A DNA stretch of 64,000 nt from an uncultured Gammaproteobacteria bacterium (lineage in GTDB: Bacteria > Pseudomonadota > Gammaproteobacteria > Steroidobacterales > Steroidobacteraceae), in contig CAVVKU010000017.1 in assembly GCA_963748995.1 (NCBI GenBank), positions 11,609 to 75,608 of the forward strand, given 5' to 3'. Each line of letters begins with the position of its first letter. Position 1 is the first letter of the stretch. The notes below the pieces were generated by a model. It was given only the letters and a program-made list of their open reading frames with translations. It had not been told where the DNA came from and ran no database searches. A program made the position numbers and the translations under genes. Below are positions 23,662 to 45,819 of this stretch, piece after piece.

Positions 23662-23690
23662 GCATCTGTTCTACATACAGTTATAGGTCA

Positions 23691-23717
23691 GAACTTTTGA
23701 GGTCGTTAGCACTCTAA
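23691..23717 (+). promoter_or_regulatory. sigmaE (RpoE)-type promoter candidate for rpoH
   Basis: GAACTT (23691-23696), 16 nt, TCTAA (23713-23717). This has the same layout as E. coli rpoH P3 (GAACTT-16-TCTGA, from memory). Confidence 0.5.
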
Positions 23718-23731
23718 CGTTAGGAGTGCTA
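23707..23731. promoter_or_regulatory. near-perfect 25-bp palindrome overlapping the rpoH -10 region
   Basis: TAGCACTC-TAACGTTAG-GAGTGCTA. 8-bp arms, and the loop core TAACGTTA is itself palindromic. Confidence 0.5.
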
Positions 23732-23758
23732 TTATTGCCCCCTAGTCGGGAGACGTGT

Positions 23759-26309: not shown

Positions 26310-26416
26310 GGACAGATTTTGTGCGCATCTCGCCGACGTGTCACGGCACGGCTGTGGGCCTATCTGTGGCGGCGCTTGGGGGAGCCTGCTTGGACGCTCG
26401 ACAGGCTGCGATGAAA

Positions 26417-26461
26417 CTGTCATAAAACGGTCACGCGGCTGTACCGGCCGTCGCCTATCCT
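26417..26461 (+). promoter_or_regulatory. pho-box-type promoter (three 11-bp-phased repeats + 10 nt + -10)
   Basis: CTGTCAT AAAA CGGTCAC GCGG CTGTACC ggccgtcgcc TATCCT. The first 18 nt match CTGTCATA(A/T)A(T/A)CTGTCA(C/T) at 17/18 positions. It lies 27 nt upstream of the ATG at 26488. Confidence 0.65.
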
Positions 26462-26487
26462 TCGCGCCAATCGCGTCGTGCGCAGGG

Positions 26488-27956: not shown

Positions 27957-28640
27957 CTATCGGCCTGACCCCTGCGGAGCGGCCGGCGGAGCGGGCGTTC
28001 GCTTCTGCGTTCTGCTTTCCTGCGCGCGCTGCCGGTACTCGTCGGCAAGGTTTTCTATGCGGGTGCGCGTGATCCGCGTGAACGGCTCGGCGGCGCTCGC
28101 CTTGGTGAACAGGCCGACGTGCTCGTAACGGTCCAGCACCTCGGTGGTGATGTCGTAGAGCTGCGCATTACTGTCGGCACACTTGTCGAAGGCTGCATTG
28201 CGTTCGGCGAGATCCGTGGCTTTCTTGCTCCGATCCGATTCCACGTCCTTGAGTTTGGTCGCCAGGTCCCTATAACGGCCGATCAGCTCCTCGATGCGCT
28301 GCTTGTAAGCGCCAAGATTTTTCTCCGCAGCGTCCCGGGAGGCGGTGAGCTGGGCGACCTCGCCCGCGACCGCGGCCGAGGCGCCGACGCGAATCTTCAG
28401 CGCGTCGCGCTCTTTCCTGGTCGAGGCCAGGTCGGCCTGCGAGGCGGCAAGGTCCTTTTTCGTCTGCTCGAGCTGGGCGGCGAGCGCGGTTTTTTCGGCC
28501 GCGACTTGCTGATATTGCGCGATGATCCGCTGCGACTCGCTGCCGCCGCTGCGCTCGACTTGAGCACCGGCACCGAAGCACGCGAGCGAGGCTGCCGCGA
28601 GACACAGGGCGCGGGAGAATTGGGGATCTCGAATGGCCAT
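27957..28640 (-). CDS. secreted coiled-coil protein (last gene of the TPS/Ton block)
   Basis: Signal peptide ALCLAAASLACFGAGAQ. Long heptad-like Q/E/K/A-rich region. Lies 9 nt after the porin stop. Confidence 0.6.
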   Translation of the reverse strand: MAIRDPQFSRALCLAAASLACFGAGAQVERSGGSESQRIIAQYQQVAAEKTALAAQLEQTKKDLAASQADLASTRKERDALKIRVGASAAVAGEVAQLTASRDAAEKNLGAYKQRIEELIGRYRDLATKLKDVESDRSKKATDLAERNAAFDKCADSNAQLYDITTEVLDRYEHVGLFTKASAAEPFTRITRTRIENLADEYRQRAQESRTQKRTPAPPAAPQGSGR

Positions 28641-28649
28641 GGTCGCCCC

Positions 28650-30275
28650 TCAGAAGCTGGTGTTTAGATCGATTTGCAAAGTATCGATCCCCAATGTAGG
28701 ACCGTCGATCGCATTGGAGCTCAGATAGCGAAGCCGCATCCAGATGCGGTTCGCGAGACCGTAGTCGCCGACGAAGTACCAGCCCTTGGCATCCGTTCCG
28801 CCCCAGTGGAAATCGGAGTCCGTGTAAGCGTCGATTACCGCATCTCGCTGCAGATATCGATAGCCGAGCAGCGCGCGCCAGGCGCCTGGGGTGATCACGG
28901 CCGGTGTACCGAAGCTGAGCTCGCCTTGGTAGCCTTTCGTGCGCGGGGCAACGTAGCCACCCACATTGGCCGACACCTCGGCCGTGTTGTAAGCGAGGTT
29001 CCTCACCGCATCAGCCGTGGCCATGAACAGGAACGGTCCCGTTGGAAGCTGATAGGTCAAATTCAGATCCGCGAGCCGATATTTGGCTGCAAGCGCGAAC
29101 AGGAAATCAGACGAGTTGGGCGAGTTGATGATGTTGAAATAGGTGTTCCCCTGGCGCAGGAACTGCGGCGCGGTGTAGTCGTACAGAGGGTTGTCGAGCG
29201 GATTCATGCGCCCGGTCACATTGAAGTAATCGAAGAAGCCGGCATTGAGCAGCAGCCGCTGCCCTTCCGGGGTCAGGCGCAGATTCGCGCCAATCTGGCC
29301 GGCCACCAGATACTTGTCCTGGGTGGAGAGCTCAATGGCCTGCAGCGGGTGGGTGCCGAGCGTGACGAATAGGTGCGATTGCTCGGCACTCCCGTCCCCG
29401 AGCCCGAGCCGTCCGGTGACAGCGGCCCCTTCGAACGTCAAGTCCTTGTGGAAGATCAGGTCCGTCGGCGTTCCGTACGGATTCACGAACTTGCCTCCCA
29501 CCATTGAGAGCCACGGGAATTTTTGCGCGTTGCGCTCATCAAGGCGTATATAGAGCTCGTCGAGGCCGAAGGCGTATGGCGCGGTGCCGTCCAGCGTCTG
29601 AGTCTCGGATACCAGGTCCGAGGTATTGCCGGTCACGACGCGGAATCCAGCGCTGACCGAGTCGGAGATCGAGGAATCCACGCCGAGTCTGGCCCGGCCA
29701 CGAAAGCGTACCTGATCGACGTTCACGTCCTCATACGCATTGTATCCCGCCTGCTGGTAGCCTCCCGCCTGGTTGATCGCGTAATAATTCGGGTAAAAGT
29801 TCAGGACGTTATTCTTGGCGTAGATCACGTCCTCCTCGCGCAACGTCACATTGCCCGAGATGCGGGTGCGACCGAGCCAGTCCGCGAGCGCCCCGGGTAC
29901 GCCCCAGCCTTCCTGCTTCGCATCCTTGACGACGCTGGCCACCACGTCCGGCTTCACCTGGTCGGCGACCTGCTTGGCGATCTCGTCCTTGACGATCTGC
30001 GGCACGTACGGCACGCGCACCGCACCCTCATCGCTCTTTGCGACGGCTGCGGCATCGGCCGCAGCCTTGTCCTGGGCCGCCTTGACCATCTGCTGCGCCT
30101 TGTCGCGCGAGATCACCCCCTGATCGACCAGCGCCTGGAGGAGATTGACGACGGTATTGCGCAGCTCCTCGAGCGATTGCCGCTCGTCCGCCGCATGGCA
30201 GGCAAGCGCGGGCGCCACGGCAAGCGCGACGGATGCCGTCATCGCCCGTACGAGCTTGGCGGTGAACATGTTCAT
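28650..30275 (-). CDS. putative outer-membrane porin with an N-terminal helical region
   Basis: Signal peptide ...LACHA. Helical LEELRNTVVNLLQALVDQGVISRDKAQQMV. Then alternating beta-strand pattern ending ...LQIDLNTSF (aromatic terminus). Confidence 0.65.
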   Translation of the reverse strand: MNMFTAKLVRAMTASVALAVAPALACHAADERQSLEELRNTVVNLLQALVDQGVISRDKAQQMVKAAQDKAAADAAAVAKSDEGAVRVPYVPQIVKDEIAKQVADQVKPDVVASVVKDAKQEGWGVPGALADWLGRTRISGNVTLREEDVIYAKNNVLNFYPNYYAINQAGGYQQAGYNAYEDVNVDQVRFRGRARLGVDSSISDSVSAGFRVVTGNTSDLVSETQTLDGTAPYAFGLDELYIRLDERNAQKFPWLSMVGGKFVNPYGTPTDLIFHKDLTFEGAAVTGRLGLGDGSAEQSHLFVTLGTHPLQAIELSTQDKYLVAGQIGANLRLTPEGQRLLLNAGFFDYFNVTGRMNPLDNPLYDYTAPQFLRQGNTYFNIINSPNSSDFLFALAAKYRLADLNLTYQLPTGPFLFMATADAVRNLAYNTAEVSANVGGYVAPRTKGYQGELSFGTPAVITPGAWRALLGYRYLQRDAVIDAYTDSDFHWGGTDAKGWYFVGDYGLANRIWMRLRYLSSNAIDGPTLGIDTLQIDLNTSF

Positions 30276-30296
30276 GGATCTCCCTTCGATCTCAGG

Positions 30297-30950
30297 TCAA
30301 CTTCTGGAAACGATCTTCAAACTGACCGGTTGCGGCATCTCGAGCGGCGGCGAGTCGGAGAGCTTCAAGAGGGAGCTCAAGTCCGACTCGATCGCCTTGT
30401 CGAGCGTCCCGTCTCCGGTGCTGCTCGACAACTTCACCTGCTTGATGCGCCCGTCCGCCTCGATCCAGACGCGTACCGACAGCGAGAATCTCTTCTGTCC
30501 GAGGCGCGTGTCGGCGGACAGCTTCTCGACAATCACGTCCTTCAGCCGATTCGTGTACCAGGCAAAGGCCGCGTTGCCGTTGCCGCCGACCAGGTCGCTG
30601 CCTCCCGCGCGCGCCGCGAGGCCAAAGGCATCCTCCCCGGCGCCGCCCTGCGCATCGAGCCCGAGGGGTCCGGCCGGCGGCGGTGAGTTGTCGGGCGGCG
30701 GCTCGTCCGGGTTGTCCTTCGGCAGCGCCTCCTCGGTTTTTTCCGGCGGCGGCGGTGGCGGCGGCTGGTCCGGAGGGGGCGGTGGCGGCGGGCGGATGAT
30801 CTGCACGGTCTGAATCTGCCGGTCGGGCTTGCCGGTCTTTGCCGCCATCATGGTGCGCACAAACCACACGAATCCCACCAGCAGCAAGAGCGCGAGCGCC
30901 CCGCCGACGAGGCGCGCGAGGTAGCGTCGTTCCCTGCCCTTGCCGGCCAT
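30297..30950 (-). CDS. TonB-family energy transducer
   Basis: N-terminal TM anchor, proline-rich spacer IIRPPPPPPPDQPPPPPPPEKTEE, and a C-terminal TonB_C-like domain. Confidence 0.8.
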   Translation of the reverse strand: MAGKGRERRYLARLVGGALALLLLVGFVWFVRTMMAAKTGKPDRQIQTVQIIRPPPPPPPDQPPPPPPPEKTEEALPKDNPDEPPPDNSPPPAGPLGLDAQGGAGEDAFGLAARAGGSDLVGGNGNAAFAWYTNRLKDVIVEKLSADTRLGQKRFSLSVRVWIEADGRIKQVKLSSSTGDGTLDKAIESDLSSLLKLSDSPPLEMPQPVSLKIVSRS

Positions 30951-30956
30951 GCGGCG

Positions 30957-31370
30957 CTACTTGACGATGCGCTGGGTGACTAGCCCAAGCTGGGTGATGT
31001 CGAGCTTGCCGACCACATCGAGCACGTCGATCACCTTCTGATATGACACCGTCGAATCAGCCTTGACGATGACCGGAAGCGCCGGATTAACCGCCTTGTA
31101 CTGGCGCAGCAAGTCCTCGAGCTCGGGCAGCGTGACCGGATAGGTGTCGAGGTACATGGTGCCGTCCGCCGTGATGGTGATCGCCTTGGTCTGCGGCTTC
31201 GCGAGCGAGGGGGTGTCGCTCGCCTTCGGCAGATTCACCTTGATGCCCTGCACCGAGGCGGTGGTCATGATGATGAAGATCACCATGAGCACGTAGGCGA
31301 GATCCAGCATGGGGGTGATGTTGATGTCGTCGTAGACATCCTTGTCGCCGCCGTCGATGGATCCGGACAC
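30957..31370 (-). CDS. exbD: ExbD/TolR-family biopolymer transport protein
   Basis: GTG start 10 nt after the exbB-like stop, with AGGAG overlapping that stop. DINITPMLDLAYVLMVIFIIM... Confidence 0.85.
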   Translation of the reverse strand: MSGSIDGGDKDVYDDINITPMLDLAYVLMVIFIIMTTASVQGIKVNLPKASDTPSLAKPQTKAITITADGTMYLDTYPVTLPELEDLLRQYKAVNPALPVIVKADSTVSYQKVIDVLDVVGKLDITQLGLVTQRIVK

Positions 31371-31380
31371 GATGGCGCTC

Positions 31381-33189
31381 CTAGCTGTACTGCTCGGCGA
31401 GCCGCGTGACGAACTCGTCGACGAACACACGGTTGTCCGCGCCGATGCCCTTGATGCGTGTGTTCAGCCAGTTGTAGCCGAACAGCGCGGGGATGGCCAC
31501 GGACAGGCCCGCAACCGTCGCGGCGAGCGCGGCCGCGGTGCCCGGCGCAATGGCGTTGATGTTGACGTCGCCCGAGAGCGCGATGGCGGCGAAAGTGATC
31601 ATGACACCGATGACGGTGCCGAGCAGTCCCAGGAACGGGCCGCCGGAGATCGCAATGGTCAGGAGCACCATCTGACTCGAGAGGCGTTGCTGCAAGCGCG
31701 TCTGGGTCGCATCCATGGTCGCGCGGATGGCGTCGATGGACTGCGGGGACAGCACGGCGAGGTGCGCGGCGCTCACGGTCTGCCCGGCAACGCGCTTCTG
31801 CGCTTCCCGCACGCCTTGATGGTAAAGCCGATACAGGGTCGAAGCGCCGTACTTTCCCTTGTTCGAGGACAACTCGGGCGCCCCATCAAGATCCTCCTCG
31901 GCGCCCTCGCCCGGGTTGTCGAGCGCCGTGGCATCGCCGCTCAGCTTGTGAAAATCGGCGAGAAACCGCCGATTGGCGCGCTCGACCCGCGACAGAAAAA
32001 ACGCCTTGATGACCATGATGATGAGCGCGATCACCAGCATCGCCATGCAGATGCCGATCACCACCCAGCCGTCGACGGTCAGATTCTTGGCGATGGTCAC
32101 GAAGTAGGAGCCCTGTCCGCCGCTCTCACGCTGGCCGTCGGCGCCGTAGACCAACAGGTTGCCGTCCATCCCCTGACTGCGCGCGCCCGCCTTGATCCAA
32201 TCCGCGGAGCGCGCCGTCTTGGACACCTCGACCTCGTCGATCTCGCCGGTGAAAAACCGGGCGCCGGCCGCCGCACCGATGGTCAACTCGCCGCCAAGCT
32301 CTACGGGCGTGACCGGCGCGCTTCCCGCGAGTGCACCGTCGACGTACAGCGTGAGCTTGCCGTTGCCGACGCTTAACGCGACGTGGTGCCACTGCCCGAA
32401 ACTCAAGTCGGCGCCCTGCGTCACCGTCACCGGCACCCCGCCGAAATTCGCGCGCGCGACGACGCGCGCCCCGTCCAGCGCGAGCTCGAGCGATTTCCCC
32501 TGCTCGCTCAGCGCGATGAGCACGGCCTGTTGCGCCTGGGCGGCACGCACCCATGCAGATGCCGTGAACCCCTGGCTCGGCACGAGGCGCAGCGACGCGC
32601 TCGCCGGCACCGTGATGCTCTCCTTGCCGGAGAACTTGGCCTCGCCACCGATCAGACCGGCCGGCGAAAGTTCTGCGGTGGAAGCCGAGGGGTCGTTCTT
32701 GTACGCGGTCGAGTCCTTCGGCGGGCTCGAGGCGTCGGAGAAGGAGAGCACCAGCGTTTGCGCGACATCGTAGGTACCGGCCACGTCGGCACCGGGCGGC
32801 GCATCGGTGTTGCCATAGTAGGCGTAAATCTTGTCGCTCTTCGCACCGCCGGCCAGTTGCGGCACGCGCACCCACAACAGCGCCATCTGATCCTGCGGGT
32901 CGTACTTCTCGAAATGGTATTTGAGCGGTGTCTTGTCGTCGCCGCCGACCAGGCGAAAGTCGGAGCCGTCGGGCTTGGTGTCGTTGAAGTAGCCAAAGTT
33001 CGCGAGCGAGAGCCGCACGAGCGCCGGTGCGTCCTGCACCGGGCCCGCGATGTCGGCGCCCGTCGGCGACAGATCGAAGCTGATCTCCTTGCGGTACTTC
33101 CAGTCATTGTTCCACCACGAGCCGGCGGCAAGCGCCAACACGGGCGCGAGCATCATCGCTATCGCAGCTCTACGAGCCCAACGGTTCAT
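31381..33189 (-). CDS. DUF2341 + LamG-like + MotA/TolQ/ExbB proton-channel fusion protein (602 aa)
   Basis: Start at MNRWARRAAIAMMLAPVLALA (signal). WKYRKEISFDL...LWVRVPQL...IYAYYGNTDA (DUF2341-like). GQWHHVALSVGNGKLTLYVDG...FTGEIDEVEVS (LamG-like). C-terminal ExbB core GGPFLGLLGTVIGVMITF... Confidence 0.8.
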   Translation of the reverse strand: MNRWARRAAIAMMLAPVLALAAGSWWNNDWKYRKEISFDLSPTGADIAGPVQDAPALVRLSLANFGYFNDTKPDGSDFRLVGGDDKTPLKYHFEKYDPQDQMALLWVRVPQLAGGAKSDKIYAYYGNTDAPPGADVAGTYDVAQTLVLSFSDASSPPKDSTAYKNDPSASTAELSPAGLIGGEAKFSGKESITVPASASLRLVPSQGFTASAWVRAAQAQQAVLIALSEQGKSLELALDGARVVARANFGGVPVTVTQGADLSFGQWHHVALSVGNGKLTLYVDGALAGSAPVTPVELGGELTIGAAAGARFFTGEIDEVEVSKTARSADWIKAGARSQGMDGNLLVYGADGQRESGGQGSYFVTIAKNLTVDGWVVIGICMAMLVIALIIMVIKAFFLSRVERANRRFLADFHKLSGDATALDNPGEGAEEDLDGAPELSSNKGKYGASTLYRLYHQGVREAQKRVAGQTVSAAHLAVLSPQSIDAIRATMDATQTRLQQRLSSQMVLLTIAISGGPFLGLLGTVIGVMITFAAIALSGDVNINAIAPGTAAALAATVAGLSVAIPALFGYNWLNTRIKGIGADNRVFVDEFVTRLAEQYS

Positions 33190-33257
33190 GCCATCCTTCT
33201 TGAGTGGAAATTTGGATGAGTTTGTCCGGCCATTGTGGCCGCGATGCGTGATTGTTT

Positions 33258-33283
33258 TGTTACACATCTGTCTGTTACACATC
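33258..33283 (-). repeat. 11-bp direct repeat (15-bp period) in the tpsA / exbB-like intergenic region
   Basis: The plus strand reads tgttacacatc at 33258-33268 and again at 33273-33283. The coding strand reads GATGTGTAACA x2. Flanked by small hairpins CCGGC-T-GCCGG and GGCCA-CAA-TGGCC. Confidence 0.6.
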
Positions 33284-33307
33284 GATTCACGCCGGCAGCC
33301 GGTTGTC

Positions 33308-36300
33308 TCATTGCGGCCGCGCCTTCGTGCCTTCGTGTTTGAGGCACTCGAGGTCATCCGGCTTGCAATCCGCTTCGCCGAGGCCGGTGACGAAGACGTT
33401 TAGCCAGCCGATCGCCGCGTCAGCCACCGGCGTGCCGCCGGAATTTCCGGACGAGGCATTGAAGTTCTCCGCCGCGGCCGCGGTCGATCCTGCCGTCGAG
33501 GAGGCCCCGGCGAAGTTCGCGCCGAGTGCAGGCGGCGCGAGCGGCACGCCGACCGAAGTGCCGGAGACGGTGATGTTGTTCGCGCCGATGACCGCCGTCG
33601 CCGCGACCGTCAGATTGCCGGCAACGATGCCGGCATCCCCGGCATTGACCACCCCGCGCGGCGCGAACAGGTACACATTCCCGGGGCTCACGCCGGGCGT
33701 GGCCGCGAGCGCTTCGATACCGCTGCCCGCGATCGCCGCCCGCAGGCTCGTGGTCGGCTGTCCGTTGCTGTCGTAGGCGATGTTGACCTCGGGCGCGGAG
33801 ATCGAGGTTTTTGCGCCGGCCCCGGCATCGATGTTGCCGTCGGTGCTCCACACGGTGATGTCGCCGCCATTGGCCGCGAACAGGCGCGACTGGTCGATCT
33901 GCAGGTCTCCGTAGGTGAAGGTGCTGACGTTACCCGTGGTCGCCGCGACGATGCCGAGCTGATCGGGCTGCTTGTCGATGCCGAAGCTCGCCGGTGCCAG
34001 CGCGAGTCCTGCGTCGATGCCGCCGCCGGGAGCGAGCAGGGAAACGTTGCCACCCTGCTCGGTGTAAATCTGGCTGAAGTAGAGGTTGATATTGCCCTGG
34101 TAGGGGTTGGTCGACCCGGCCGCCGGGTTGGCGCCCGGGAACAGCTTGCTGATCGCCGCGAACGCGCCGCTGAAATCGCCGTTCCCGGACGCGGCCTCCT
34201 TGCTGCCGTAGTATTGCAACAGGTCGAAGAACAGGTCCTCGACGTAGACGCGCTGCAGCTCGGGACCGATCGCATTGAAGATCCGCTTCGCCTGTGCGGC
34301 CGTCAGGCCGCTGAGGTTGTCGATGCTCTCGATGTAGGAAGTCAGATTCGAATCGAACTGGCTCGAATTGTCGATGTAAGTATTGATGAAGGCAGCATAT
34401 TGCGCGGGCGACGCGGCGCCGATGCCGGCTTGTACGCTGATGTTCGCACCCGTCGAAGGCAGGACCGGATTCACGAGATTGGCGCGGGTGATGATGCCGT
34501 TCGAGGTGCCCAGGTTCACGTTGCCGCCGGCGGTGAGCTCGAGCTCGCCCGGTCCGTCGATCGCGATGCCGCTCGCGTCCGCCAGCACCTGCCCGCTCGC
34601 CACGCGCTCCTGTGGGTAGGTGACGTTGCCGCCGGCGAGGATCGAGGTGACATCCGATGAGCTCAGATTCTGCGCGACGAGATTGAGGCCCGAGATGTCC
34701 CCGCCCGCGACGATCTGTACGGGCTTAGCGGCCCAGATTCCATCGGGCGTACCGGTGCTCAACGGGAAATCGATGCTGCCGTTCAGCGCAACGATGCGCA
34801 CCGGCTGAAGAGTGCCCGCTGCATCGGCGGCGGCGTAGATGGGGACCGCAGCGTGCTGATCGGGCAGAGTCAAAGACAGCGCGCCCTCGATATCGCTATA
34901 GATGCCGAGTCCGTTCTGATTGACAGGGGAGCCCGCGGAGGGAAGGCCGCGCGGATCCGCGTCCGGGACGATCAGCACGTCGGCACTGCCAACCGTGATG
35001 TTCTGATTCGCAAAAACCTGCAGATTACCGCTCGACGACGGCGACGTGACGAGGCTGCGGCTTATATTGACGTTGCCGCTGAGCGCCACCAGATTGACCG
35101 AGGACGGCAGCGTGTCGAGCACGCCCCCGCCGCCGGGGGGGAACGGCTGCACGCCATTTGCCGAGAGAAATGAGCTCGAGATCGCGTTCCCGACGGCAAT
35201 CGACTCATCATCGAGCGTCACGCTGCCGCCGACCGCCGTCAAATTCGCCGAGGAGTCCGCGCCATAGGTCGAGAAATATACGGGAGCGGGGGTGACCGGT
35301 TGAAAGATGCCCTGCGCGAGCAAGGTGGGATTGAAGATTTCGGCCACCTGCACGTTGCCGCGTGCCGTGACCGCGAGACTCGCATCGCCGAGGCCGATGA
35401 TGGGCGCCGCCCCTGCCGTGCCGCCGTTGAGGGTCGCGGGTGTCGGGCCCACGTCCGCACCGGCGATCAAGCTCAGTTGACCCCGGCCCACATCGTAGCT
35501 GCCTCCGAGGATCGAGCCGCCCGCGGCGACGATGAGATTGCCGCCGCCGAACACCTCCGGCGCACTCACGCCCGCAATGGCCCCCCCGACCGGCACGCCG
35601 ACCGTGGCGATGGACACCGAGAGATTGTCGATGTCACCGCCGGCTCGGATCGCGACGTTGCCGCCGGCCAGGGCGCCGATGCCCTGCTGGAAATCCTGGA
35701 AATTGGTGGTCCAGGACGTCGCCAGGGCGGGAGCGATGCCATCGTTGACCGCCGAGCCCAGGCGCCACTGCCAGGCATTCACGAATTGATCGGTGGGCGC
35801 ACCGAGCACATCCCCGGCGACGCTCACCTGGATGTCGCCGCCGCCGATCGGATAGGCAAGCGGCGGCGCACTGCCGCGGCCCAAGCGGCCGGTGGAGAAC
35901 ATCACCCCCGGCTCGGCGACGCCGGCCGTGTAGAGCAGCGCCGCCTGGCTGCCGAGAACCAGATCTCCCGACGCGCTCACGTCGATGAACCCATCGCCGG
36001 TTCGCACCATCGTGGGCGCATAGTCGCGGCTCGTGACGGCGCTCGTTGCACCGATCGATGCCGCGCAGAGCGCGTCACAAAGGGTCACGGTGCCCGGATT
36101 CGCGGCATTCGGTGCGAGCACCGCCTGCGGATCCGCTGCCGTGAAGTCCGCACCCGCGACGATGCGATAGGACCACGAATCCGATGCCGTGGTCGGCAGG
36201 GTGAATGCGCCGGTCCCGGAGGTCGCGGCGAACCCGTCGGAGAGCGAGGCATCGAATGTGATCCCGCCCTGCGCGCGCAAGGTCAAGACTCCCGGCACGT

Positions 36301-39300: not shown

Positions 39301-42300
39301 TGCCGAAGGGGATGCTGAGGCCGCTGGCGGAGGTCGAGGTGAGACTGCCGGCGCCAAGGACCAAGGAGGCGGCGTCCACGGTGATATCGCCGAAGGGCGC
39401 CCGCAGCACACCGTCTTGGATAACCGTGCCGGCGCTCAAGGTCAAGGCGCCGCCGGCCGATAGCGGCGTGGCCGCGGTCCCGGCGCTCGCGTTCACGGTG
39501 ATCACGTTGACCGTGGGCGCGGTAACGCTGCTGGGGTCCGCCGAAATCACGAACTGCGACAACGTGGTCGGATAGATCTGCTGCGCCGTCAGATTGAGAT
39601 TGCCATCGGTGAAGAGCGCGCCGTCGAAGGTGGTGGCCGTGTCGCTCGTGCTGGTCAAAAGTCCCCGGACCCGCAAGTCGCCGCTGGAGCTGAAGCTTGC
39701 CGTGCCGATTCCCTGCAGCGCGCTGGTGCCGTACAGCTCGATGAAGTGTCCGCTCACATCGAGTGTCCCACCGGTCGGGGCGCCGGGGGCACCGATGGCG
39801 TTCGCGGCAGTGACGTTGTTCAGGAACGTTACATTCGAATCGCCGAACTCGACGTACGGCGCAGTCACCCGGGCAGTCGACCCGGGGCTGACCGAATACA
39901 CGCCGGCGTCGAGCGTGATGGATTCGGCGGCACTCAGGGTCACGTTGCCGACGAAGTCGATGCGCCCCGGCAACGGTGCGTAATCGGAGAAGATTGAGAG
40001 CGGCGTCGCCTTGAGGTTGACGATGTCGAAGCCCGCGGCCGCGAGAGCGCTCGCCGATACATAGGCGTTTTCCGCGAGCGCATTCGGGATGCCGAGACCC
40101 GGATCGATGACGATGGGCGGTTGCGCGGCGCTCACGATGATCTGGCTCGAGGTGATGCCGGCATAGCCGGGGAACGAGGTGCTCCCGCCATATAGGCCCG
40201 GGGCGGTCGCGCCGAGATCATTGCGGCCGCTCGTGTCGAGGGTGAGGCTGAAAGTGCCGCCCGACGGCTGCGGCAATCCAGGGCCCGCCTTGCCGGCGGC
40301 CGCCTCGAGCTGGCCGCCGAGCTCGGCGCCATCGGATGCAGTCAAATCGATCAGGCCGCCCCCGGAGGCGACTTGCTCGCTGCGCAGCGCGCCGCCGCCG
40401 GGAGGCGTCTCGGCAATCACCCCCGCGGAGCCCGCCACGTCGATCAGAGAGCCCGGCAACAGTTCGATGAAGCCTCGGGACGCAGTCAAGGTCACAGTCC
40501 CGCCAGGCAATATCTCCCCGGTCTGTTGTCCGAGGCTATTGGGGAAGATCCTCGGCACCCCGGCTGCATTGAGCACCGCCTGCGGGCCGAGCCAAATCGC
40601 CTGGGTGTTGTTGTAGGTGGCTTCCGGTTGACTCGCAAGCAGCGAGAGAGAGATGGTCCCCCCGGGAGCGCTGAGCGTACCATCCTCGATGATGCGGACA
40701 TCGGACGAGAGGGAAAGGCTCGCGAGCGGATCCGCCAGGATTTGCGATCCGGCGCCTATGGTCAGCGAGGGCGTCGCGTTCGTGACGTTGAAATAATTGA
40801 CGCCGTTGACGCTTGCGGTGCTGGTCTCGCCGACCTGGCTGAGCGACAGGCTCACCGGTTGCCGGAGCTGATCCGGAAGCGTGGCAATTCCCGCGGTCCC
40901 GATCAACGATGTCATATTCCGGAGGCCGGCATACCCTGCGGGCAGTACCAGGTTGCTCTGCCGGAGGGTGACCGTGGTGTCGTCCGCGAGCGTGATGCCG
41001 CCTTGATCGGCAGTAAGTGCATAGTCACTGAAGCCGCCTGAGGCGAGCTGCGCGGGCGTCATCCAGAGAGTCGCGGAGTTTCCTCCGCGGCAGTTGGCGG
41101 CAGCGATACATACCGCAGAATCGGTGAGATCGAGCGTGCCGCCCTCATATATTCCATAGCCCGTGAGCGTGGCGCCCATCGCGATGCTCGGAGTGCCGCC
41201 CTGAAGCGGATCACCTTGCAATCCCGCGCCAATGCTGATCGTGCCGCCGGCACCCGCATTCAACCCGCCGCCGGTGGTGATCTGCCCACCGCCGGAGACG
41301 TCGATGCGGCTGCCGGGCGCAAGCTCCACGCCAGGGTTCGCGCTATTGATGGAAACGGCGGCAAGCGAGACATTACCTCCGTTGATGAAGAGCGGCACGG
41401 TATTGCCGGTGGGATAGAGCAGCGGATTGTCGTTGACCCATTCGCCGTCCGCGGATAGCGAAGCCTTCGGACCGAGGATGAGCGCGAAGGGCTCGGCCAG
41501 CGCCGCTCCGGCCGTCGGCTCTGCGAATGCGGTGATGTTTCCCCCGGGCGCAGTGATCTGGCCCTCGATGTCGATCGCACTCGCGGTCACGCTGAAGTTG
41601 CCGCCCGCGGGAAGCTCCACGGCGACCGAGGCCGGCAAGAGGATCTTGCCATTGGCATAGATGGTGACCGACCCAAACCCGCCTGTGCCGAGCAGCTCGG
41701 GCCGCAGCACAGAGGCCGTGTAGCTCGCCGGCAGCGGATCGCTCGACGGATTGAGGGCGGTGCCGTTGGCATTGAGGAGGGTCGGCAGCACCAGGCCGGG
41801 GGTCACCGTGACATTGTCGACCACGAAGTCCGCGTTGGCCTCGCCGGGCGTGCCGATGACGAGCGAGGCGGGCAGCGGCACTTGGTTATACGGCTGATAG
41901 GTGTTGGTATCGTAGGGCGCATTGATCGCGGCAACCGCCGTATCCGGATTGCGCTGATACAAGCCGCTTTGCACACTGGCGTCCACCGTCGAGTCGAGCA
42001 CGAACTGGCGTGCCGACACGCTGAGGCTTCCACCATTCTTACCCTCGATGTAACCGGGGGACCAGGTTGGTTGGAGCGCCTCGTAGGCGGTCGATGTGCC
42101 CCACTTGGGGTCACTCAGAGTCGCCGAGTTGGCGATGCCGACGTACGACACATTCGGGTTTGCCGAGCCAATCGGCACCACCTGCCCGGTGGTCGTGAGC
42201 AGATCGGTCGTCTTCAAGTATCCGCCCGTATACTGGATTTGCCCGCCCGCCACATCGACGGTCGAGCCCGGTGCCAGAATCGCATCCCCGGCGGAGTTAA

Positions 42301-43777
42301 TTGCGATGGTGCCGCCGTTCAAGTTTCGCTCGACCACGTTGTAGCCGATGGCCGCGACCTCGCCGCTGATGTTGGCGAGGGGCGTGCCGGTGCGGATGTC
42401 CACGTACACCGTCTGGCTGCGCAAAGGCCCGTTCTGCTGCAACGGGCTGTCCGCGAGCTCGTAGCCGCGCAGCTGCACCGGAATGACATTGTCGCTCACC
42501 GGCAGCACGATGCTCGCGCCCGACACGTCCAGGTCGGCGCCCGAGGCGACATAGACGCGGCTGCCGTCGGGACTTGCCGTGTATACGCCGGGGGACTGTG
42601 CAGCCGTGATGCTGAGCTGCCCGCCGGTCGCGCGGGTGACGCTGTCCGACAGGATCTGCACCCTCGCGCCGGTCATCGCAATTCGCGAGGGCAGCTGCGG
42701 AACGCTGTTGACGGTGGTCGCGGAACTCGCATCGAGAGTGACTTCGGTTTCGCTGTTCGCGCCCAGAGTGAGCTGTCCGCCGGTCCCGTCCTGGGGCGTT
42801 CCGTTGGTTTGACTGAGAGTGCCGCTCACGCCGGCAGCGCCCGACGGACCGATGGTGCCGTGGTCGACCGCCTGCAGGTAGATGCTGCCGTTCTCGTTGA
42901 TGCTGGTCGTCGCCGACACCCGGCCCAGCTGATTGACGGCAAGGCCGGCGAGGGTCACGTTGCCATCGGTGGCGAGGATCTGGCCGACCAGTTGTTCGGG
43001 TGACTTGACGGCCGAGTTGCTCGCCGCACCGTTCGTCACGGCCCCGCCCGTGCCTCCGACCTGTACCAGAAGGCCGCGCAGCGACGGATCCGATTGCGTC
43101 GCAAGGTAGATGGTATCGCCTGCGGCAAGCATGGTTTGGCCGCCCGGCGTGCTGATCGAGCCCTCATTGGTGATGCTCGGTGCGAAGATCAGGATCTGCC
43201 CCCCGGAGGCCGTCTGGAGGCTCGCGCGCGGGGAGATGGTCACGCCGCCCGTCGTTCCGGTCGAGAATGCCTGGAACGCGGGATTGCCGTTCGAGCCCGG
43301 GGCGATGAGCCCGCCGGATACCGCCGCGTTGGCAATGTCCAGCGTGGAGGCAAGCAGCCCGCCAACGTTCACTTGGGCGCCGCTCCCGAACACGATGCCG
43401 TTCTGATTGATGAGGAAGACCCGGCCGTTCGCGTTGAGGGCGCCGAAGATCTGGCTCGGATTCACATCGTTGATCTGGTTCAGGGCCACGGCCGAGGCGC
43501 TCGGCTGCACGAATTGCACCGTGCCGTTGGCCGAGATGTTGAAGCTCTGCCAGTTCAAGGTCACGTTGCTGGAGGTCTGGTTCACCGTGAGCTTGGAACC
43601 CGACTGAGTGGCGGTCGCCGTGCCCGCACTCACGAAACCCGCGGCACCGAATTTGCTGTTGATGCAGGCGCTCGCGGCGCACGGCACCGGCAGGGCAGTC
43701 CCCGCCGATGCCGCGGACCACGCGAACGGCAGGCAGGCGACGTTCAGGAAGGTGAAAAAGCGGGGTCGTTCGCGCAC
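33308..43777 (-). CDS. giant two-partner-secretion exoprotein (TpsA, filamentous-haemagglutinin family, 3489 aa)
   Basis: GTG start at 43777 with GGGAGGA upstream, 13 nt after the tpsB stop. Signal FFTFLNVACLPFAWSAASA. TPS domain LNWQSFNISANGTVQFVQPSASAVALNQINDVNPSQIFGALNANGRVFLINQNGIVFG. Thousands of residues of G/A/S/T-rich beta-helix-like repeats. The C-terminal region resembles DUF3739 (...GGDITVWSTDGNIDAGAGAKT...). Confidence 0.9.
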   Translation of the reverse strand: MRERPRFFTFLNVACLPFAWSAASAGTALPVPCAASACINSKFGAAGFVSAGTATATQSGSKLTVNQTSSNVTLNWQSFNISANGTVQFVQPSASAVALNQINDVNPSQIFGALNANGRVFLINQNGIVFGSGAQVNVGGLLASTLDIANAAVSGGLIAPGSNGNPAFQAFSTGTTGGVTISPRASLQTASGGQILIFAPSITNEGSISTPGGQTMLAAGDTIYLATQSDPSLRGLLVQVGGTGGAVTNGAASNSAVKSPEQLVGQILATDGNVTLAGLAVNQLGRVSATTSINENGSIYLQAVDHGTIGPSGAAGVSGTLSQTNGTPQDGTGGQLTLGANSETEVTLDASSATTVNSVPQLPSRIAMTGARVQILSDSVTRATGGQLSITAAQSPGVYTASPDGSRVYVASGADLDVSGASIVLPVSDNVIPVQLRGYELADSPLQQNGPLRSQTVYVDIRTGTPLANISGEVAAIGYNVVERNLNGGTIAINSAGDAILAPGSTVDVAGGQIQYTGGYLKTTDLLTTTGQVVPIGSANPNVSYVGIANSATLSDPKWGTSTAYEALQPTWSPGYIEGKNGGSLSVSARQFVLDSTVDASVQSGLYQRNPDTAVAAINAPYDTNTYQPYNQVPLPASLVIGTPGEANADFVVDNVTVTPGLVLPTLLNANGTALNPSSDPLPASYTASVLRPELLGTGGFGSVTIYANGKILLPASVAVELPAGGNFSVTASAIDIEGQITAPGGNITAFAEPTAGAALAEPFALILGPKASLSADGEWVNDNPLLYPTGNTVPLFINGGNVSLAAVSINSANPGVELAPGSRIDVSGGGQITTGGGLNAGAGGTISIGAGLQGDPLQGGTPSIAMGATLTGYGIYEGGTLDLTDSAVCIAAANCRGGNSATLWMTPAQLASGGFSDYALTADQGGITLADDTTVTLRQSNLVLPAGYAGLRNMTSLIGTAGIATLPDQLRQPVSLSLSQVGETSTASVNGVNYFNVTNATPSLTIGAGSQILADPLASLSLSSDVRIIEDGTLSAPGGTISLSLLASQPEATYNNTQAIWLGPQAVLNAAGVPRIFPNSLGQQTGEILPGGTVTLTASRGFIELLPGSLIDVAGSAGVIAETPPGGGALRSEQVASGGGLIDLTASDGAELGGQLEAAAGKAGPGLPQPSGGTFSLTLDTSGRNDLGATAPGLYGGSTSFPGYAGITSSQIIVSAAQPPIVIDPGLGIPNALAENAYVSASALAAAGFDIVNLKATPLSIFSDYAPLPGRIDFVGNVTLSAAESITLDAGVYSVSPGSTARVTAPYVEFGDSNVTFLNNVTAANAIGAPGAPTGGTLDVSGHFIELYGTSALQGIGTASFSSSGDLRVRGLLTSTSDTATTFDGALFTDGNLNLTAQQIYPTTLSQFVISADPSSVTAPTVNVITVNASAGTAATPLSAGGALTLSAGTVIQDGVLRAPFGDITVDAASLVLGAGSLTSTSASGLSIPFGTTQGGIDWVYPLPNGNSVIYGTDGIAPPSQQVTLRGAKVNVNKGATIDVAGGGDLEAYEWVDGTGGTNDVLSNSSTNGGRPGQFAILPSLRGGVSPYDPNISNGTTLQVGDSVYLSGMQGLAAGVYTLLPARYALLPGAFLVTQASGYQDIQSSQVIPVLGGGDIISGYQTVAGTPFGGSYGESRTGGFEVVPASIVLQQAQYTITSANEFFANQAQSAHVSSPRLPLDSGVLALVASDALTLGGALDTTAPKGGLGAEVDISSADILVAPTAVAGQAGQIVLTAGSLDALGAQTLLLGGLNNAGSITTTAQTVQIGSGAALTAPDVILTALNQVTVEGGASVTAAGSAPGSQIFSLTGDGAFLNVSAGLQSTVTRVNPAGQAGILDLAAGSTLAAPGGSVYLEATDNVATAGHLSLAGGDLAVQSSGILLGNAVPNTTGTLLSSALLGSASLRSLLLVSAAPIDMNGSVTANASDIIVDAPGFVDVGTNDVATLNASKSITLQNSQGTSFAAGSAGTGTLRLDAANIILNGGSVTASGFDLVVLRATDALTATASSALGTAGSLSLSASQITTAADVSLSMTANGAVSLLAPAKRTALAAAALGGSLSVTGSSIDVATEIELPSGRVGLTSTSGDLSIESGGSINVAGVVQQYDGVSVASPGGSVLLASAGNITLASGSSIDVSAGKGGEAGSLSLSAPGTGGTGGSVVVAGNLAGSGTAGEGGSFSIDARAFDFDALNLLLNAGGFTGARTARLRGPGDLEVLAAGSNDANAVTASQVELEADQGSVLVNAGALIDASGAHGGQVVLAAANNVIVNGSIDAHATLAGQGGGTVTLESGDAAAGSGTSQILVNAGSTINVSGAGPSADGAAGAGGSVLLSAPLATVQSWLDGTGGIALAGRIAGASRTALVANHVYQNTSGVIESQDMSTYQSDATAFMTAASTGPAAAITAAAASACNCGFELEPGVEIDAAVSAANPTGALTLNTPWNLYTWRFGADNVPGVLTLRAQGGITFDASLSDGFAATSGTGAFTLPTTASDSWSYRIVAGADFTAADPQAVLAPNAANPGTVTLCDALCAASIGATSAVTSRDYAPTMVRTGDGFIDVSASGDLVLGSQAALLYTAGVAEPGVMFSTGRLGRGSAPPLAYPIGGGDIQVSVAGDVLGAPTDQFVNAWQWRLGSAVNDGIAPALATSWTTNFQDFQQGIGALAGGNVAIRAGGDIDNLSVSIATVGVPVGGAIAGVSAPEVFGGGNLIVAAGGSILGGSYDVGRGQLSLIAGADVGPTPATLNGGTAGAAPIIGLGDASLAVTARGNVQVAEIFNPTLLAQGIFQPVTPAPVYFSTYGADSSANLTAVGGSVTLDDESIAVGNAISSSFLSANGVQPFPPGGGGVLDTLPSSVNLVALSGNVNISRSLVTSPSSSGNLQVFANQNITVGSADVLIVPDADPRGLPSAGSPVNQNGLGIYSDIEGALSLTLPDQHAAVPIYAAADAAGTLQPVRIVALNGSIDFPLSTGTPDGIWAAKPVQIVAGGDISGLNLVAQNLSSSDVTSILAGGNVTYPQERVASGQVLADASGIAIDGPGELELTAGGNVNLGTSNGIITRANLVNPVLPSTGANISVQAGIGAASPAQYAAFINTYIDNSSQFDSNLTSYIESIDNLSGLTAAQAKRIFNAIGPELQRVYVEDLFFDLLQYYGSKEAASGNGDFSGAFAAISKLFPGANPAAGSTNPYQGNINLYFSQIYTEQGGNVSLLAPGGGIDAGLALAPASFGIDKQPDQLGIVAATTGNVSTFTYGDLQIDQSRLFAANGGDITVWSTDGNIDAGAGAKTSISAPEVNIAYDSNGQPTTSLRAAIAGSGIEALAATPGVSPGNVYLFAPRGVVNAGDAGIVAGNLTVAATAVIGANNITVSGTSVGVPLAPPALGANFAGASSTAGSTAAAAENFNASSGNSGGTPVADAAIGWLNVFVTGLGEADCKPDDLECLKHEGTKARPQ

Positions 43778-43790
43778 GTCGTCCTCCCGG

Positions 43791-45515
43791 TCAGAAGCTG
43801 TAGCGCAAGGAAAAATCGATGCGCGAATCGTCTTTGAGTGTCCGTACGCCGGCGCGCTCGGGCACCGCGTAGTCCAGATAGCCGCTGATGCCCTGCGGAT
43901 TATCGAGCCGCACGCCGAAACCACGGCTCCACAGGGTGATGTTCTCGTGCTGCCCCGGCAGCGCATCGATCAGCGTGGCCACTCCGCCGTCGACGAACAC
44001 GAAAAAATACAGCGGCGCGAAAAAACTGCCGACGTGCGGGCCGAGCGGGGGACTGTGCAGTTCCACTCCGCCCGTGGCTCCCGAGTCACCGAGTGCCTCG
44101 GCCTCGAGGTAGCCCCGCACCGTGTCGACACCTCCCAGGGAGAATTGCTCATTGTTGACCAGCGGACTGTCCGACCACTGCGCGCTGAGCCGCTCCTGGA
44201 AGGCGAGTCCCCAGGGGAGCGGCTGCGTGGCGCCAAATCCCATACGCACATAAAAATAGTTGGGGTATGCGTTGTAGCGAGCATTCTCGAATTGATCGCT
44301 GCTGTTGATGAGCCCTCTGACGCCGACGTTGAAGCCGAGCGAGGCCGAGTAGAGAAAGGCGCCGCGGGCCCGGTTACCCGAGTAGACCGCCGACCAGTTG
44401 ACGTACTTGACGGGGGCCGTCACCGCTCCCGGGGTCGTGCTGCTCGCGCTGCCGTTGCTGTCCGGCAGCACCGAGGTGAGCACATCCTTGTAATCCGCGC
44501 CGAGGTTCAAGTTCTGGGAGCCGGTCGCGGAGCTGTCGATGGGCTTGAGCCAGTGCGCTCCATAGATCGAACCCTTGCCGAGCACGCCCAAGGTACCGAG
44601 CGCGAGCACATTGCTATAGGTTCGCGTATAGGAGAGCGCGGCCTCGCTGTCGCCCGAGCCGATGTGCCCGAGATAGTTGGCGATCAGCACTTCGGCATCG
44701 CTCGTGTTCGCGGGCGCCGTCTGATACATGAGCCCGAACGTATCCTGGCGCCCCCACAAATTGTCGTAGCTCAGACCCACCGTGGCGCGATTGGGTGTCG
44801 TGTCCGCCGTGTGCCGGTCGTCGTAGCTCACGAATCCCTGCAGAGGGAGCTTGTCCTTCACATCGAGGTCGACGTCGACGGAGCCGGGCTCCGAGCCCGC
44901 CTTGAGCACCGGAGTCACCACCCGATCGGGGGTCCGCGCGTTCAATTCCGTCAGCTCCTTCTGAAGCGCCGGAAACGACGGTGAGCTGCCCTGCTCGAGA
45001 GCCGGAAGGGCCGCGAGGATCTGGCGGCGCGAATAGTAGCGCTCGCCGCGCACATGCACGCTCTCGAGCTTGCCCTCCGTGACCTTCAGCCGCACGAGCC
45101 CGTCGGCCACTTGCTGCTCGGGAATATCGACGAATACGGCGCTGTAACCCGCGTCCTTGTAGGCCTTCTCGAGCGCATCGGCCGCCTGTTTCACGGTCTC
45201 GATGGTGCGATTCGGACCGAGGAACGGGTACACGGCCTTCTCGATCGCGGTCTGCGGCAGCACCTTCGTCCCGAGAACGCGAAACTCGGTGATGTCGAAC
45301 GTCGCCTCAGCTTTGGCCGCCGGTGGCGCCACGGGCGGCCCAGCCGCTTCGGCACCCTTCGACTGGCCGGTTGCGGCGAACGAAGAGACGCTGATGACCA
45401 TTCCGAGCATTCCCCTGAGGACTCGATGCTTGCCGCGCAAATTGTTGTCTCTGACCAAATAAAATGCAGATAACCGGGTGTTCGACCGGAAGATCCGCCG
45501 AGTCTTTGCATCCAC
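43791..45515 (-). CDS. ShlB/FhaC/HecB-family TpsB outer-membrane transporter
   Basis: POTRA region FDITEFRVLGTKVLPQTAIEKAVYPFLGP...LEKAYKDAGYSAVFVDIPEQ, then a beta-barrel ending ...IDFSLRYSF. Maximal ORF is given. Codon usage suggests the real start is TTG 45440 or ATG 45410/45401. Confidence 0.88.
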   Translation of the reverse strand: MDAKTRRIFRSNTRLSAFYLVRDNNLRGKHRVLRGMLGMVISVSSFAATGQSKGAEAAGPPVAPPAAKAEATFDITEFRVLGTKVLPQTAIEKAVYPFLGPNRTIETVKQAADALEKAYKDAGYSAVFVDIPEQQVADGLVRLKVTEGKLESVHVRGERYYSRRQILAALPALEQGSSPSFPALQKELTELNARTPDRVVTPVLKAGSEPGSVDVDLDVKDKLPLQGFVSYDDRHTADTTPNRATVGLSYDNLWGRQDTFGLMYQTAPANTSDAEVLIANYLGHIGSGDSEAALSYTRTYSNVLALGTLGVLGKGSIYGAHWLKPIDSSATGSQNLNLGADYKDVLTSVLPDSNGSASSTTPGAVTAPVKYVNWSAVYSGNRARGAFLYSASLGFNVGVRGLINSSDQFENARYNAYPNYFYVRMGFGATQPLPWGLAFQERLSAQWSDSPLVNNEQFSLGGVDTVRGYLEAEALGDSGATGGVELHSPPLGPHVGSFFAPLYFFVFVDGGVATLIDALPGQHENITLWSRGFGVRLDNPQGISGYLDYAVPERAGVRTLKDDSRIDFSLRYSF

Positions 45516-45597: not shown

Positions 45598-45653
45598 ATC
45601 ATCTTGGGTGCGGGTGTCACTGGTGTGATTGAAGTGTGACAATTCAGTAACAT
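45598..45653 (-). promoter_or_regulatory. conserved promoter element copy 1 (upstream of tpsB): three phased repeats + 10 nt + GATGAT
   Basis: The coding strand reads TGTTACTGAAT TTGTCAC ACTT CAATCAC ACCA GTGACAC ccgcacccaa GATGAT. It is about 85% identical over about 50 nt to copy 2 at 48491-48546. Confidence 0.6.
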
Positions 45654-45737
45654 GGCGTTCCATTCCCGAAGAAAGGGCGGCACCCGGAACGCCGCCTGCA
45701 TGGCTTGGGAACGAGCCTAAGTCCGGCGTTCGATGCG

Positions 45738-45774
45738 CCAAAAAGCGGGCCACCAGGTTGCCCTGGTGGCCCGC
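45738..45774 (-). terminator. rho-independent terminator after the PstS-like gene
   Basis: The coding strand reads GCGGGCCACCAGG-GCAA-CCTGGTGGCCCGC followed by TTTTTGG. A second weaker hairpin GGCGGC-N9-GCCGCC + CTTTCTT lies at 45676-45696. Confidence 0.8.
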
Positions 45775-45819
45775 TCGAGTCCTCGTGGACCCGATCCGAA
45801 GTGCCTGGAATTGCCGCGA

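Follow-up and report, generated by a model that had tools for sequence, protein, structure and literature searches.

A receptor-less gene set conserved over four phyla joins a two-partner secretion pair, a Ton/Tol-like motor and a plug-less porin

The present analysis concerns seven neighbouring genes in a 64,000-nucleotide stretch of DNA from an uncultured gammaproteobacterium (assembly GCA_963748995.1, contig CAVVKU010000017.1, positions 11,609 to 75,608; the whole stretch is referred to as the window). The genes encode the proteins TpsB and TpsA of a two-partner secretion (TPS) pair, an ExbB/TolQ-like and an ExbD/TolR-like stator subunit, a TonB-like protein, an outer-membrane protein of the Porin_5 family, and a coiled-coil protein; the five genes other than tpsB and tpsA are called the cassette. 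The bare adjacency of TPS and motor genes is not new, because this type of locus has already been described in Pseudomonas aeruginosa and is conserved in a few relatives. It is added here that the seven genes form a near-obligate core over four phyla, that a TonB-dependent receptor is excluded from this core, and which fold and charged lumen the porin has. Furthermore, two candidate docking strands, an affinity of the stator to Tol proteins, and a shared promoter motif were found. Among the possible functions, we rank highest, albeit tentatively, a TPS-assisted and motor-gated uptake of anionic phosphorus-containing material through Porin_5.

All seven open reading frames (ORFs) are arranged in head-to-tail orientation along the minus strand, and the intergenic gaps from tpsB to the coiled-coil gene are 13, 118, 10, 6, 21, and 9 nt. 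The first gene, tpsB (43791..45515, minus strand), encodes an Omp85-type TPS transporter with Pfam matches to POTRA_2 (8e-17) and to the ShlB barrel (1e-21); its start codon is ambiguous and is either the GTG at 45515 or an ATG further downstream. It is followed on the same strand by tpsA (33308..43777, GTG start at 43777 and stop at 33308), which encodes an exoprotein of 3489 amino acids (aa), the exbB-like gene (31381..33189, ATG at 33189, 602 aa), exbD (30957..31370, Pfam ExbD 4e-28), the tonB-like gene (30297..30950), the Porin_5 gene (28650..30275), and the gene for the coiled-coil protein (27957..28640), which is periplasmic, has a signal peptide and comprises 227 aa. The upstream boundary of the unit is marked by an intrinsic terminator of the preceding gene (45737..45776, minus strand), which consists of a 15-bp stem followed by UUUUU and has a folding energy of -38.8 kcal/mol (z = -5.7). 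The G+C content of the window is about 65%, and its closest relatives are annotated Steroidobacteraceae. An earlier note on this DNA, made from the sequence alone, had described seven minus-strand genes with the same coordinates, gaps and domains, a strong terminator just upstream of tpsB, and the lack of a TonB-dependent receptor. The ORF calls and the Pfam search agreed with the gene set, the terminator was recovered, and no ORF of the window that had the size of a TonB-dependent receptor matched Plug or TonB_dep_Rec.

The conservation of the gene set was analysed with the DUF2341-LamG-ExbB protein as anchor. At E <= 1e-30, its homologues comprised 1087 clusters (50% identity). A profile was built from 40 diverse members and retrieved at least 588 species genomes, and the best 80 loci with identities of 37-75% were kept; 82 loci were analysed. 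They stemmed from Gamma-, Beta-, Alpha-, and Deltaproteobacteria, Verrucomicrobia, and Nitrospirae. The six-frame ORFs of the loci were searched with the window proteins and then with hidden Markov models of the families. Loci with at least 6 kb downstream of the anchor were regarded as evaluable (n = 62), and 47 loci were fully flanked. Downstream of the exbB-like gene, ExbD and the TonB-like protein were each encoded in 62 of the 62 evaluable loci, Porin_5 in 59, and the coiled-coil protein in 60. Genes for TpsA and/or TpsB directly adjoined the cassette in 46 of the 47 fully flanked loci, which included members of four phyla. Thus, the adjacency of the TPS pair and the motor, which the earlier note had considered open to refutation if confined to close relatives, extends over several phyla. 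The linkage was also observed in the opposite direction, as all three contigs that were anchored on the C-terminal DUF3739 of TpsA carried the cassette next door. Thiobacillus denitrificans, which was found via Porin_5, has adjacent TPS genes and cassette as well.

Two gene orders were found. The order tpsB-tpsA-exbB and onward is that of the window, and the order tpsB-exbB-exbD-tonB-porin-coiled-coil-(ppiC)-tpsA occurs in Alphaproteobacteria, Verrucomicrobia, and Pseudomonas. In several Alphaproteobacteria (L023, L037, L046, L058, and L082), the stop codon of tpsB overlaps with the start codon of exbB. A gene for a PpiC-type prolyl isomerase follows the coiled-coil gene in nine loci. Pairs of extracytoplasmic function (ECF) sigma factor and FecR genes lie near about seven loci, and type II secretion genes and an ankyrin protein gene are further recurrent neighbours; no ECF sigma/FecR pair adjoins the cassette of the window. 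Plug and TonB_dep_Rec were not among the 25 most frequent Pfam families of the 49 large unassigned neighbouring ORFs. As no receptor family recurs in the neighbourhood, its absence appears to be a property of the whole family and not of the window alone. In three loci (L026, L027, and L068) the motor and the coiled-coil gene are retained, and also tpsB where the flank allows, and Porin_5 is not encoded within the available 4-8 kb. Two of these, L026 and L027 from Micropepsaceae, contain a PpiC gene and the type II secretion genes GspE and GspF in place of Porin_5. L031 is the one cassette for which a TPS gene is missing within 10 kb.

The only barrel protein encoded in the cassette matches Porin_5 over positions 1-535 of the PF16930 model (6e-128, full length). 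An AlphaFold2 model calculated from 65 diverse sequences had a mean predicted local distance difference test (pLDDT) value of 85.7 and comprised a 16-strand barrel at aa 137-540 without a plug, which is preceded by three N-terminal periplasmic helices. The nearest solved folds in a Foldseek search were OmpM1 of Veillonella, as the top match, and MOMP, AlgE, and OmpF, and PDB sequence searches with Porin_5 and with the coiled-coil protein yielded nothing meaningful. The possibility that Porin_5 is a TonB-dependent receptor in disguise was rejected on the basis of the model and the Foldseek results, as 16 strands are predicted and a plugged receptor has 22; the porin is thus distinct from a conventional TonB-dependent transporter, as the proposal in the earlier note had presupposed. 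In strand 2, basic residues occupy the alternating positions 188, 190, 192, 194, and 196 and are 91-100% conserved, and they are flanked by the conserved residues R144, R146, and R212. An acidic loop with the sequence DAVxDAFTDSD is invariant at positions 478-488. Because the basic residues alternate with hydrophobic partners, the arginine ladder probably faces the lumen, as it does in anion and polyanion channels.

The most conserved N-terminal element of Porin_5 has the family form VRVPYVPE, in which R87, V88, and P92 are invariant. In the window protein it reads VRVPYVPQ (aa 86-93; 29997..30020, minus strand), and it is a candidate for a docking strand that resembles a TonB box or a TolA box. 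In the model, helices 2 and 3 are connected by a coil of low confidence, and the segment lies in it. Conserved and yet predicted to be unstructured, VRVPYVPE carries the signature that would be expected of a strand that folds only on binding, as do the TonB box and the TolA box of TolB, and we regard it as a candidate for such a strand. The N-terminus of TpsB was also considered as carrier of a TonB box and was rejected; no conserved segment precedes POTRA1, and hence there is no conserved N-terminal strand. The search for a TonB-box-like strand near the N-terminus of either outer-membrane protein, which the earlier note had recommended, was thus negative for TpsB and yielded a candidate in the porin. 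For the 227-aa protein, the Pfam search returned only noise matches of the coiled-coil type. Its C-terminal region is conserved around a conserved Cys, and by its position it would be the counterpart of PA0697 of P. aeruginosa.

The second candidate strand was found in TpsA. Judged from the sequences, the pair belongs to type Vb secretion, with a TPS domain in TpsA (PF05860 3e-26, aa 56-306, DNA 42860-43612; TIGR01901 4e-23) and POTRA and ShlB domains in the adjacent TpsB. The C-terminal part of TpsA contains DUF3739 (8e-37, aa 3304-3412, DNA 33542-33868). Tandem DNA repeats were not found in tpsA. The tail of the family has a fixed order: the beta-helix-like DUF3739 is followed by a flexible low-complexity linker of about 45 aa and then by an amphipathic strand, which in the window protein is WLNVFVTGLGE (aa 3458-3468; 33374..33406, minus strand). 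The regular expression [FLM][LIV][ST]V[ED]V[LIV]G[FL]G[DE] matched 30 of 34 sequences, and the other four were near-matches. In 10 of the 34 sequences the strand forms the extreme C-terminus. Because all three contigs of the reciprocal search carried the cassette, the TpsA subfamily with DUF3739 is called cassette-specific.

The stator contains an additional module. The ExbB-like protein combines a signal peptide, a DUF2341 and LamG module of about 370 aa in the periplasm, and a MotA_ExbB channel domain (Pfam DUF2341 1e-14, Laminin_G_3 8e-26, MotA_ExbB 2e-23). A survey of stator evolution from 2025 listed the DUF2341 appendage as unexplained (PMC12505986). The same DUF2341-LamG module was observed in up to 22 tandem copies in giant proteins of up to 7867 aa (P0121, P0122, P0124, P0146, and others), and the module is therefore also used to build very large proteins, which are presumably located at the surface. 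An AlphaFold2 model of the ExbB-like protein was left uninterpreted, as it was based solely on homologues that are at least 74% identical and had a pLDDT value of 55.6, the LamG part alone being confident. The Thr and Gly motifs of the ExbB channel are conserved in diverse homologues, and the transmembrane Asp of ExbD is retained in at least 90% of 76 homologues. Due to the conservation of these residues, the motor looks functional.

Its classification turned out to be less simple. With the NCBIfam models and with PDB chains, the stator subunits scored at least as well on TolQ and TolR as on ExbB and ExbD. The TolQ score was 102 bits versus a cut-off of 221 and the TolR score 86 versus 127, and the scores of the ExbB and ExbD equivalog models were also below the cut-offs. 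The TonB-like protein has one transmembrane helix, a proline-rich spacer (aa 53-95), and a C-terminal domain of the TonB_2 type. It passed the TonB_2 cut-off weakly (24.5 bits versus 22), stayed below that of TonB_C, and had GltJ as its top, weak, NCBIfam match. The transmembrane helices of E. coli TonB and TolA contain a Ser-x3-His motif; in the 40 of 72 homologues shown in the alignment, the helix of the TonB-like protein had no conserved Ser or His and no conserved polar residue. Because TolQ and TolR match at least as well as ExbB and ExbD, "Ton" is too specific, and we prefer the designation "Ton/Tol-like". Thus, of the private ExbB/ExbD/TonB motor that had been proposed for the window, the stator and TonB-like genes stand, and the label "Ton" does not. 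In 16 betaproteobacterial cassettes (L018, L030, L032, L038, L049, L050, L052, L055-L057, L067, L072, L075, L076, L078, and L079), two consecutive exbD paralogues were observed, which points to a stator with a heterodimeric pair of ExbD subunits in this group. Four of the double-exbD cassettes contain an ankyrin-repeat gene between the Porin_5 gene and the coiled-coil gene.

Expression signals were found at two positions of the window. The motif TGTCACACTTCAATCAC (45625..45641, minus strand) lies about 110 nt upstream of tpsB and resembles a Pho box, with two 7-nt repeats 11 nt apart. The motif TGTAACAAAACAATCAC (33248..33264, minus strand) lies 59 nt upstream of the exbB ATG and is followed by CACAAT. 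The window contains exactly two copies of the common 17-nt pattern TGTMAC-N4-CAATCAC, one before tpsB and one before exbB, and both sites have the architecture of a Pho box, including the spacing of the repeats and an A-rich spacer. The exbB-proximal motif and the following -10-like CACAAT are retained in relatives. Since a conserved operator and a -10-like element are present in the 118-nt gap between tpsA and exbB, an internal promoter is likely. The proposal of the earlier note that the genes form one transcription unit was supported with respect to the boundary set by the terminator, and a single transcript is therefore doubtful in view of the internal operator. Taken together, the motifs suggest a common, possibly PhoB-type, control of tpsB and exbB. 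Upstream of cassette genes in the collected loci, 12 of 88 regions matched the Pho consensus at p <= 0.05, compared with 4.4 expected, and strong sites were among them, e.g. CTGTCATAAAAATGTCAA of L031. Three tandem Pho-box-like half-sites, CTGCGAT-GAAA-CTGTCAT-AAAA-CGGTCAC, were also observed at 26406-26434 on the plus strand of the window, 1.5 kb beyond the cassette and between a histone-deacetylase-like gene and a gene for a PEP-CTERM-type protein.

The locus of this type in P. aeruginosa comprises pdtA (PA0690), phdA (PA0691), pdtB (PA0692), exbB2 (PA0693), exbD2 (PA0694), tonB4 (PA0695), and genes for a putative porin (PA0696), a protein of unknown function with a signal peptide (PA0697), and a PpiC-type protein (PA0699). 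PA0690-PA0699 belong to the sigma-VreI/PhoB (PUMA3) regulon, and their function has been described as "still uncharacterized". From the promoter PphdA, phdA, pdtB, exbB2D2, tonB4, and PA0696-PA0701 are transcribed as one operon; pdtA has its own promoter, and PpdtA as well as PphdA depends on PhoB and on a Pho box (PMC4971064). When phosphate was limiting, PdtA and PA0696 ranked with the most strongly enriched proteins (PMC9769906). Llamas et al. (2009) reported that homologues of the TPS proteins, ExbBD, and PA0696 travel together in a few other Proteobacteria (PMC2729926). A literature search for a mechanism of the TPS-motor locus yielded the regulon papers and the stator-evolution paper, and in the literature searched none that proposed or tested a mechanism was found. 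The literature thus confirmed the parallel between the window and pdtA/pdtB-exbB2-exbD2, which the earlier note had drawn as a coupling that is not known to have been explained. Judged from the published gene content, the P. aeruginosa locus has the same core set as the window, i.e. TpsA, TpsB, ExbB, ExbD, the TonB-like protein, the porin, and the signal-peptide protein. The order tpsB-exbB-exbD-tonB-Porin_5-coiled-coil-PpiC-LysR of the six Pseudomonas sp. loci in our collection (L069-L074) is equal to the published order. In contrast, the window has the order tpsB-tpsA-exbB and lacks phdA, a VreAIR-type ECF sigma/anti-sigma set, the Hxc secretion system, and a nearby PpiC gene, and its host is an environmental Steroidobacteraceae-like gammaproteobacterium.

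Several other systems share parts of this design. In Haemophilus influenzae HxuA/HxuB/HxuC, a TPS-secreted protein is encoded together with, and serves, a TonB-energised outer-membrane uptake system, and HxuC belongs to the classical plugged receptors with 22 strands and relies on the general TonB of the cell. The window differs in that a plugged receptor is missing, a 16-strand porin barrel and a private motor are present, and TpsA is about fourfold larger than HxuA. The Tol-Pal system (TolQ-TolR-TolA-TolB-Pal-CpoB) resembles the set in the best matches of the stator, in a rod with a C-terminal domain of the TolA/TonB type, and in a coiled-coil protein that is encoded last. Its ExbB counterpart, however, lacks the periplasmic DUF2341-LamG module of the window protein, and the set of the window is linked to TPS genes. 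Agl-Glt/CglB of Myxococcus and GldLM/SprB of Bacteroidota combine a 5:2-type stator driven by protons with TonB-like proteins of the periplasm and with outer-membrane barrels that lack a plug, and thereby control an adhesin at the surface. Homology to these systems was seen only in the stator family and the proline-rich region; the adhesin of the window, in contrast, is secreted by the type Vb route, and the set is not known to be linked to motility. With OmpM1, Porin_5 has in common the porin fold of 16 strands and a periplasmic helical stalk, but the identity is only about 12% and an SLH domain is missing. An arginine-lined lumen, as predicted for Porin_5, is characteristic of anion and polyanion channels of the OprP/AlgE type.

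For the uptake through Porin_5, which we favour tentatively, the following mechanism can be envisaged. The products of the seven genes would form a single conserved apparatus of the envelope, the expression of which is probably induced by phosphate limitation. TpsB and TpsA would display a fibre of about 3500 aa at the cell surface. In the inner membrane, a stator of the ExbB/TolQ-ExbD/TolR type that is dedicated to the set and driven by protons would power the TonB-like rod across the periplasm, and the C-terminal domain of the rod may dock by strand addition on VRVPYVPE in the periplasmic extension of Porin_5. The docking would gate the plug-less, arginine-lined 16-strand channel, and anionic, probably phosphorus-containing, cargo that has been captured or released by the fibre might then be imported. 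A scaffold or adaptor function could be assigned to the coiled-coil protein and to the LamG-type module of ExbB. By analogy, the logic of such an uptake would be that of HxuA/HxuB/HxuC with the porin in place of the TonB-dependent receptor. In favour of this mechanism are the conserved linkage of the core set, the apparently functional motor, the modelled fold, arginine ladder and acidic loop of Porin_5, the position of its most conserved N-terminal segment in a coil predicted to be disordered, the lack of a recurrent receptor gene, the PhoB dependence and phosphate response of the P. aeruginosa locus, and the Pho-box-like sites in the window and upstream of other cassettes. In T. denitrificans ATCC 25259, a gene for a 5'-nucleotidase (Metallophos and 5_nucleotid_C; L083, 5093-7060) was observed between tpsA and the exbB-like gene. 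This insertion fits a role in phosphorus scavenging. A phmmer search did not reveal a homologue of the enzyme in the other loci, and the insertion is therefore lineage-specific.

The following points weigh against this mechanism. A plug-less 16-strand porin has no obvious need for energy. The porin may not be an essential partner, because the three loci mentioned above lack Porin_5. Neither promoter of the window locus matched the strict Pho-box consensus of E. coli with up to three mismatches, and the window-wide number of such matches was at the chance level. The chance statistic of the shared promoter motif is circular, because the pattern was derived from its two sites. Lastly, single mutants of P. 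aeruginosa in tpsA, tpsB, PA0695, and PA0696 were unchanged in virulence for zebrafish (PMC2729926).

It is nearly as likely, and equally tentative, that the motor acts on the fibre. DUF3739 and the tethered terminal strand of TpsA would then stay in the periplasm and be gripped by the TonB-like protein or by the LamG module of ExbB, and the proton-motive force would complete, arrest, release, tension, or retract the fibre, as an energised type Vb system or a motor-coupled adhesin. In its periplasmic retention the tail would resemble the prodomain of FhaB and the arrested half of CdiA, and as a motor-coupled adhesin the system would be comparable to Agl-Glt/CglB or GldLM/SprB. This would account for the mutual linkage of TpsA and the cassette (46 of 47 loci and the three reciprocal contigs) and for the TpsA-specific conserved tail, in which DUF3739 and then the linker of about 45 aa precede the terminal strand, for example ..TVEVLGFG(D/E). 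The consensus of TonB boxes is D/E-T-x-V-V-T-A, and the terminal strand is TonB-box-like in form. The overlap of tpsB and exbB in some lineages, which points to translational coupling, the retention of the motor without Porin_5 in three loci, and the PpiC-type chaperone gene after the cassette in nine loci, which fits a periplasmic handling of TpsA, argue in the same direction. However, other TpsA proteins that are about as large reach the outside with no motor, Porin_5 and the coiled-coil protein would have no obvious role, TpsB lacks a conserved docking strand, and the periplasmic location of the TpsA C-terminus is assumed by analogy. A related version, in which the motor engages the periplasmic tail of TpsA, the porin and the coiled-coil protein serve as stator or guide at the outer membrane and in the periplasm, and the mechanical work consists of release, tensioning, rotation, or retraction, would assign a role to these two proteins and is rather improbable. 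Gating of the porin and action on the fibre are not mutually exclusive.

Two further explanations are less consistent with the data than these two leading models. The motor may form an envelope tether similar to Tol-Pal, in which a TolQ/TolR/TolA-like motor ties the inner membrane to the stalked porin with the assistance of a CpoB-like coiled-coil protein, so that the outer membrane is stabilised or organised at sites of fibre export. The higher scores of the ExbB- and ExbD-like proteins on TolQ and TolR (NCBIfam, PDB chains), the parallel with the gene order tolQ-tolR-tolA-(outer-membrane partner)-cpoB, the outer-membrane-tethering porin OmpM1 as best structural match, and the N-terminal helical extension of Porin_5 are in accordance with a tether. 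We nevertheless consider it unlikely, since neither TolB nor Pal families were detected among the cassette genes, the Tol scores fall well short of the curated cut-offs, the charged lumen of Porin_5 is strongly conserved and thus speaks for a specific channel, and the control by phosphate in P. aeruginosa is easier to reconcile with acquisition than with a housekeeping role. Alternatively, the TPS pair and the Ton-like set might have separate functions in phosphate starvation or stress and be kept together only by shared regulation, and the TonB-like protein might serve receptors encoded elsewhere. Separate promoters, which are likely in view of the operator before exbB and the own promoter of pdtA in P. 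aeruginosa, and the cassette without TPS gene (L031) would agree with this. However, a linkage across four phyla in two gene orders is far beyond usual co-regulation, the tpsB/exbB start-stop overlap is present in several loci, the TpsA subfamily is cassette-specific, and no receptor gene recurs nearby. A lack of any coupling is thus very improbable.

The neighbourhood of the cassette in the window was also inspected. It is flanked by genes for three secreted proteins (47497-48351, minus strand; 27265-27936 and 26308-27207, plus strand), which end with VPLPAA, a hydrophobic segment, and RRR. Such tails are sorting signals of the PEP-CTERM/VPLPA-CTERM type, and the bodies of the three proteins had no Pfam match. 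An EpsH exosortase with DUF3485 is encoded at 57395-59074 on the minus strand, and genes for a TPR protein and a glycosyltransferase also lie upstream, in an exosortase/polysaccharide region. The genes ftsY and an rpoH-like sigma factor gene lie near the cassette (21143-24631, plus strand). As the relative L002 has ftsY-ftsE-ftsX-rpoH beside its cassette, too, the cassette seems to have a stable chromosomal position in this clade, with no obvious mobile element.

In textbooks, type V secretion exemplifies an export that has no source of energy at the outer membrane, and Ton systems exemplify energy that is spent only on plugged receptors. The conserved receptor-less set joins TPS and a Ton-type motor, including in the phosphate-starvation-induced and virulence-associated locus of P. 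aeruginosa. Experimental handles are the two candidate strands, the arginine-lined channel, the LamG module of the stator, and the tractable P. aeruginosa, for which transposon mutants have been described. If the uptake model is true, the set would represent a new energised route through a porin-type channel, which would be relevant for phosphorus scavenging in soil, in water, and during infection. If the fibre model is true, no energised type Vb secretion system would have preceded it, and surface organelles driven by a motor would gain a new class that is present in at least four phyla.

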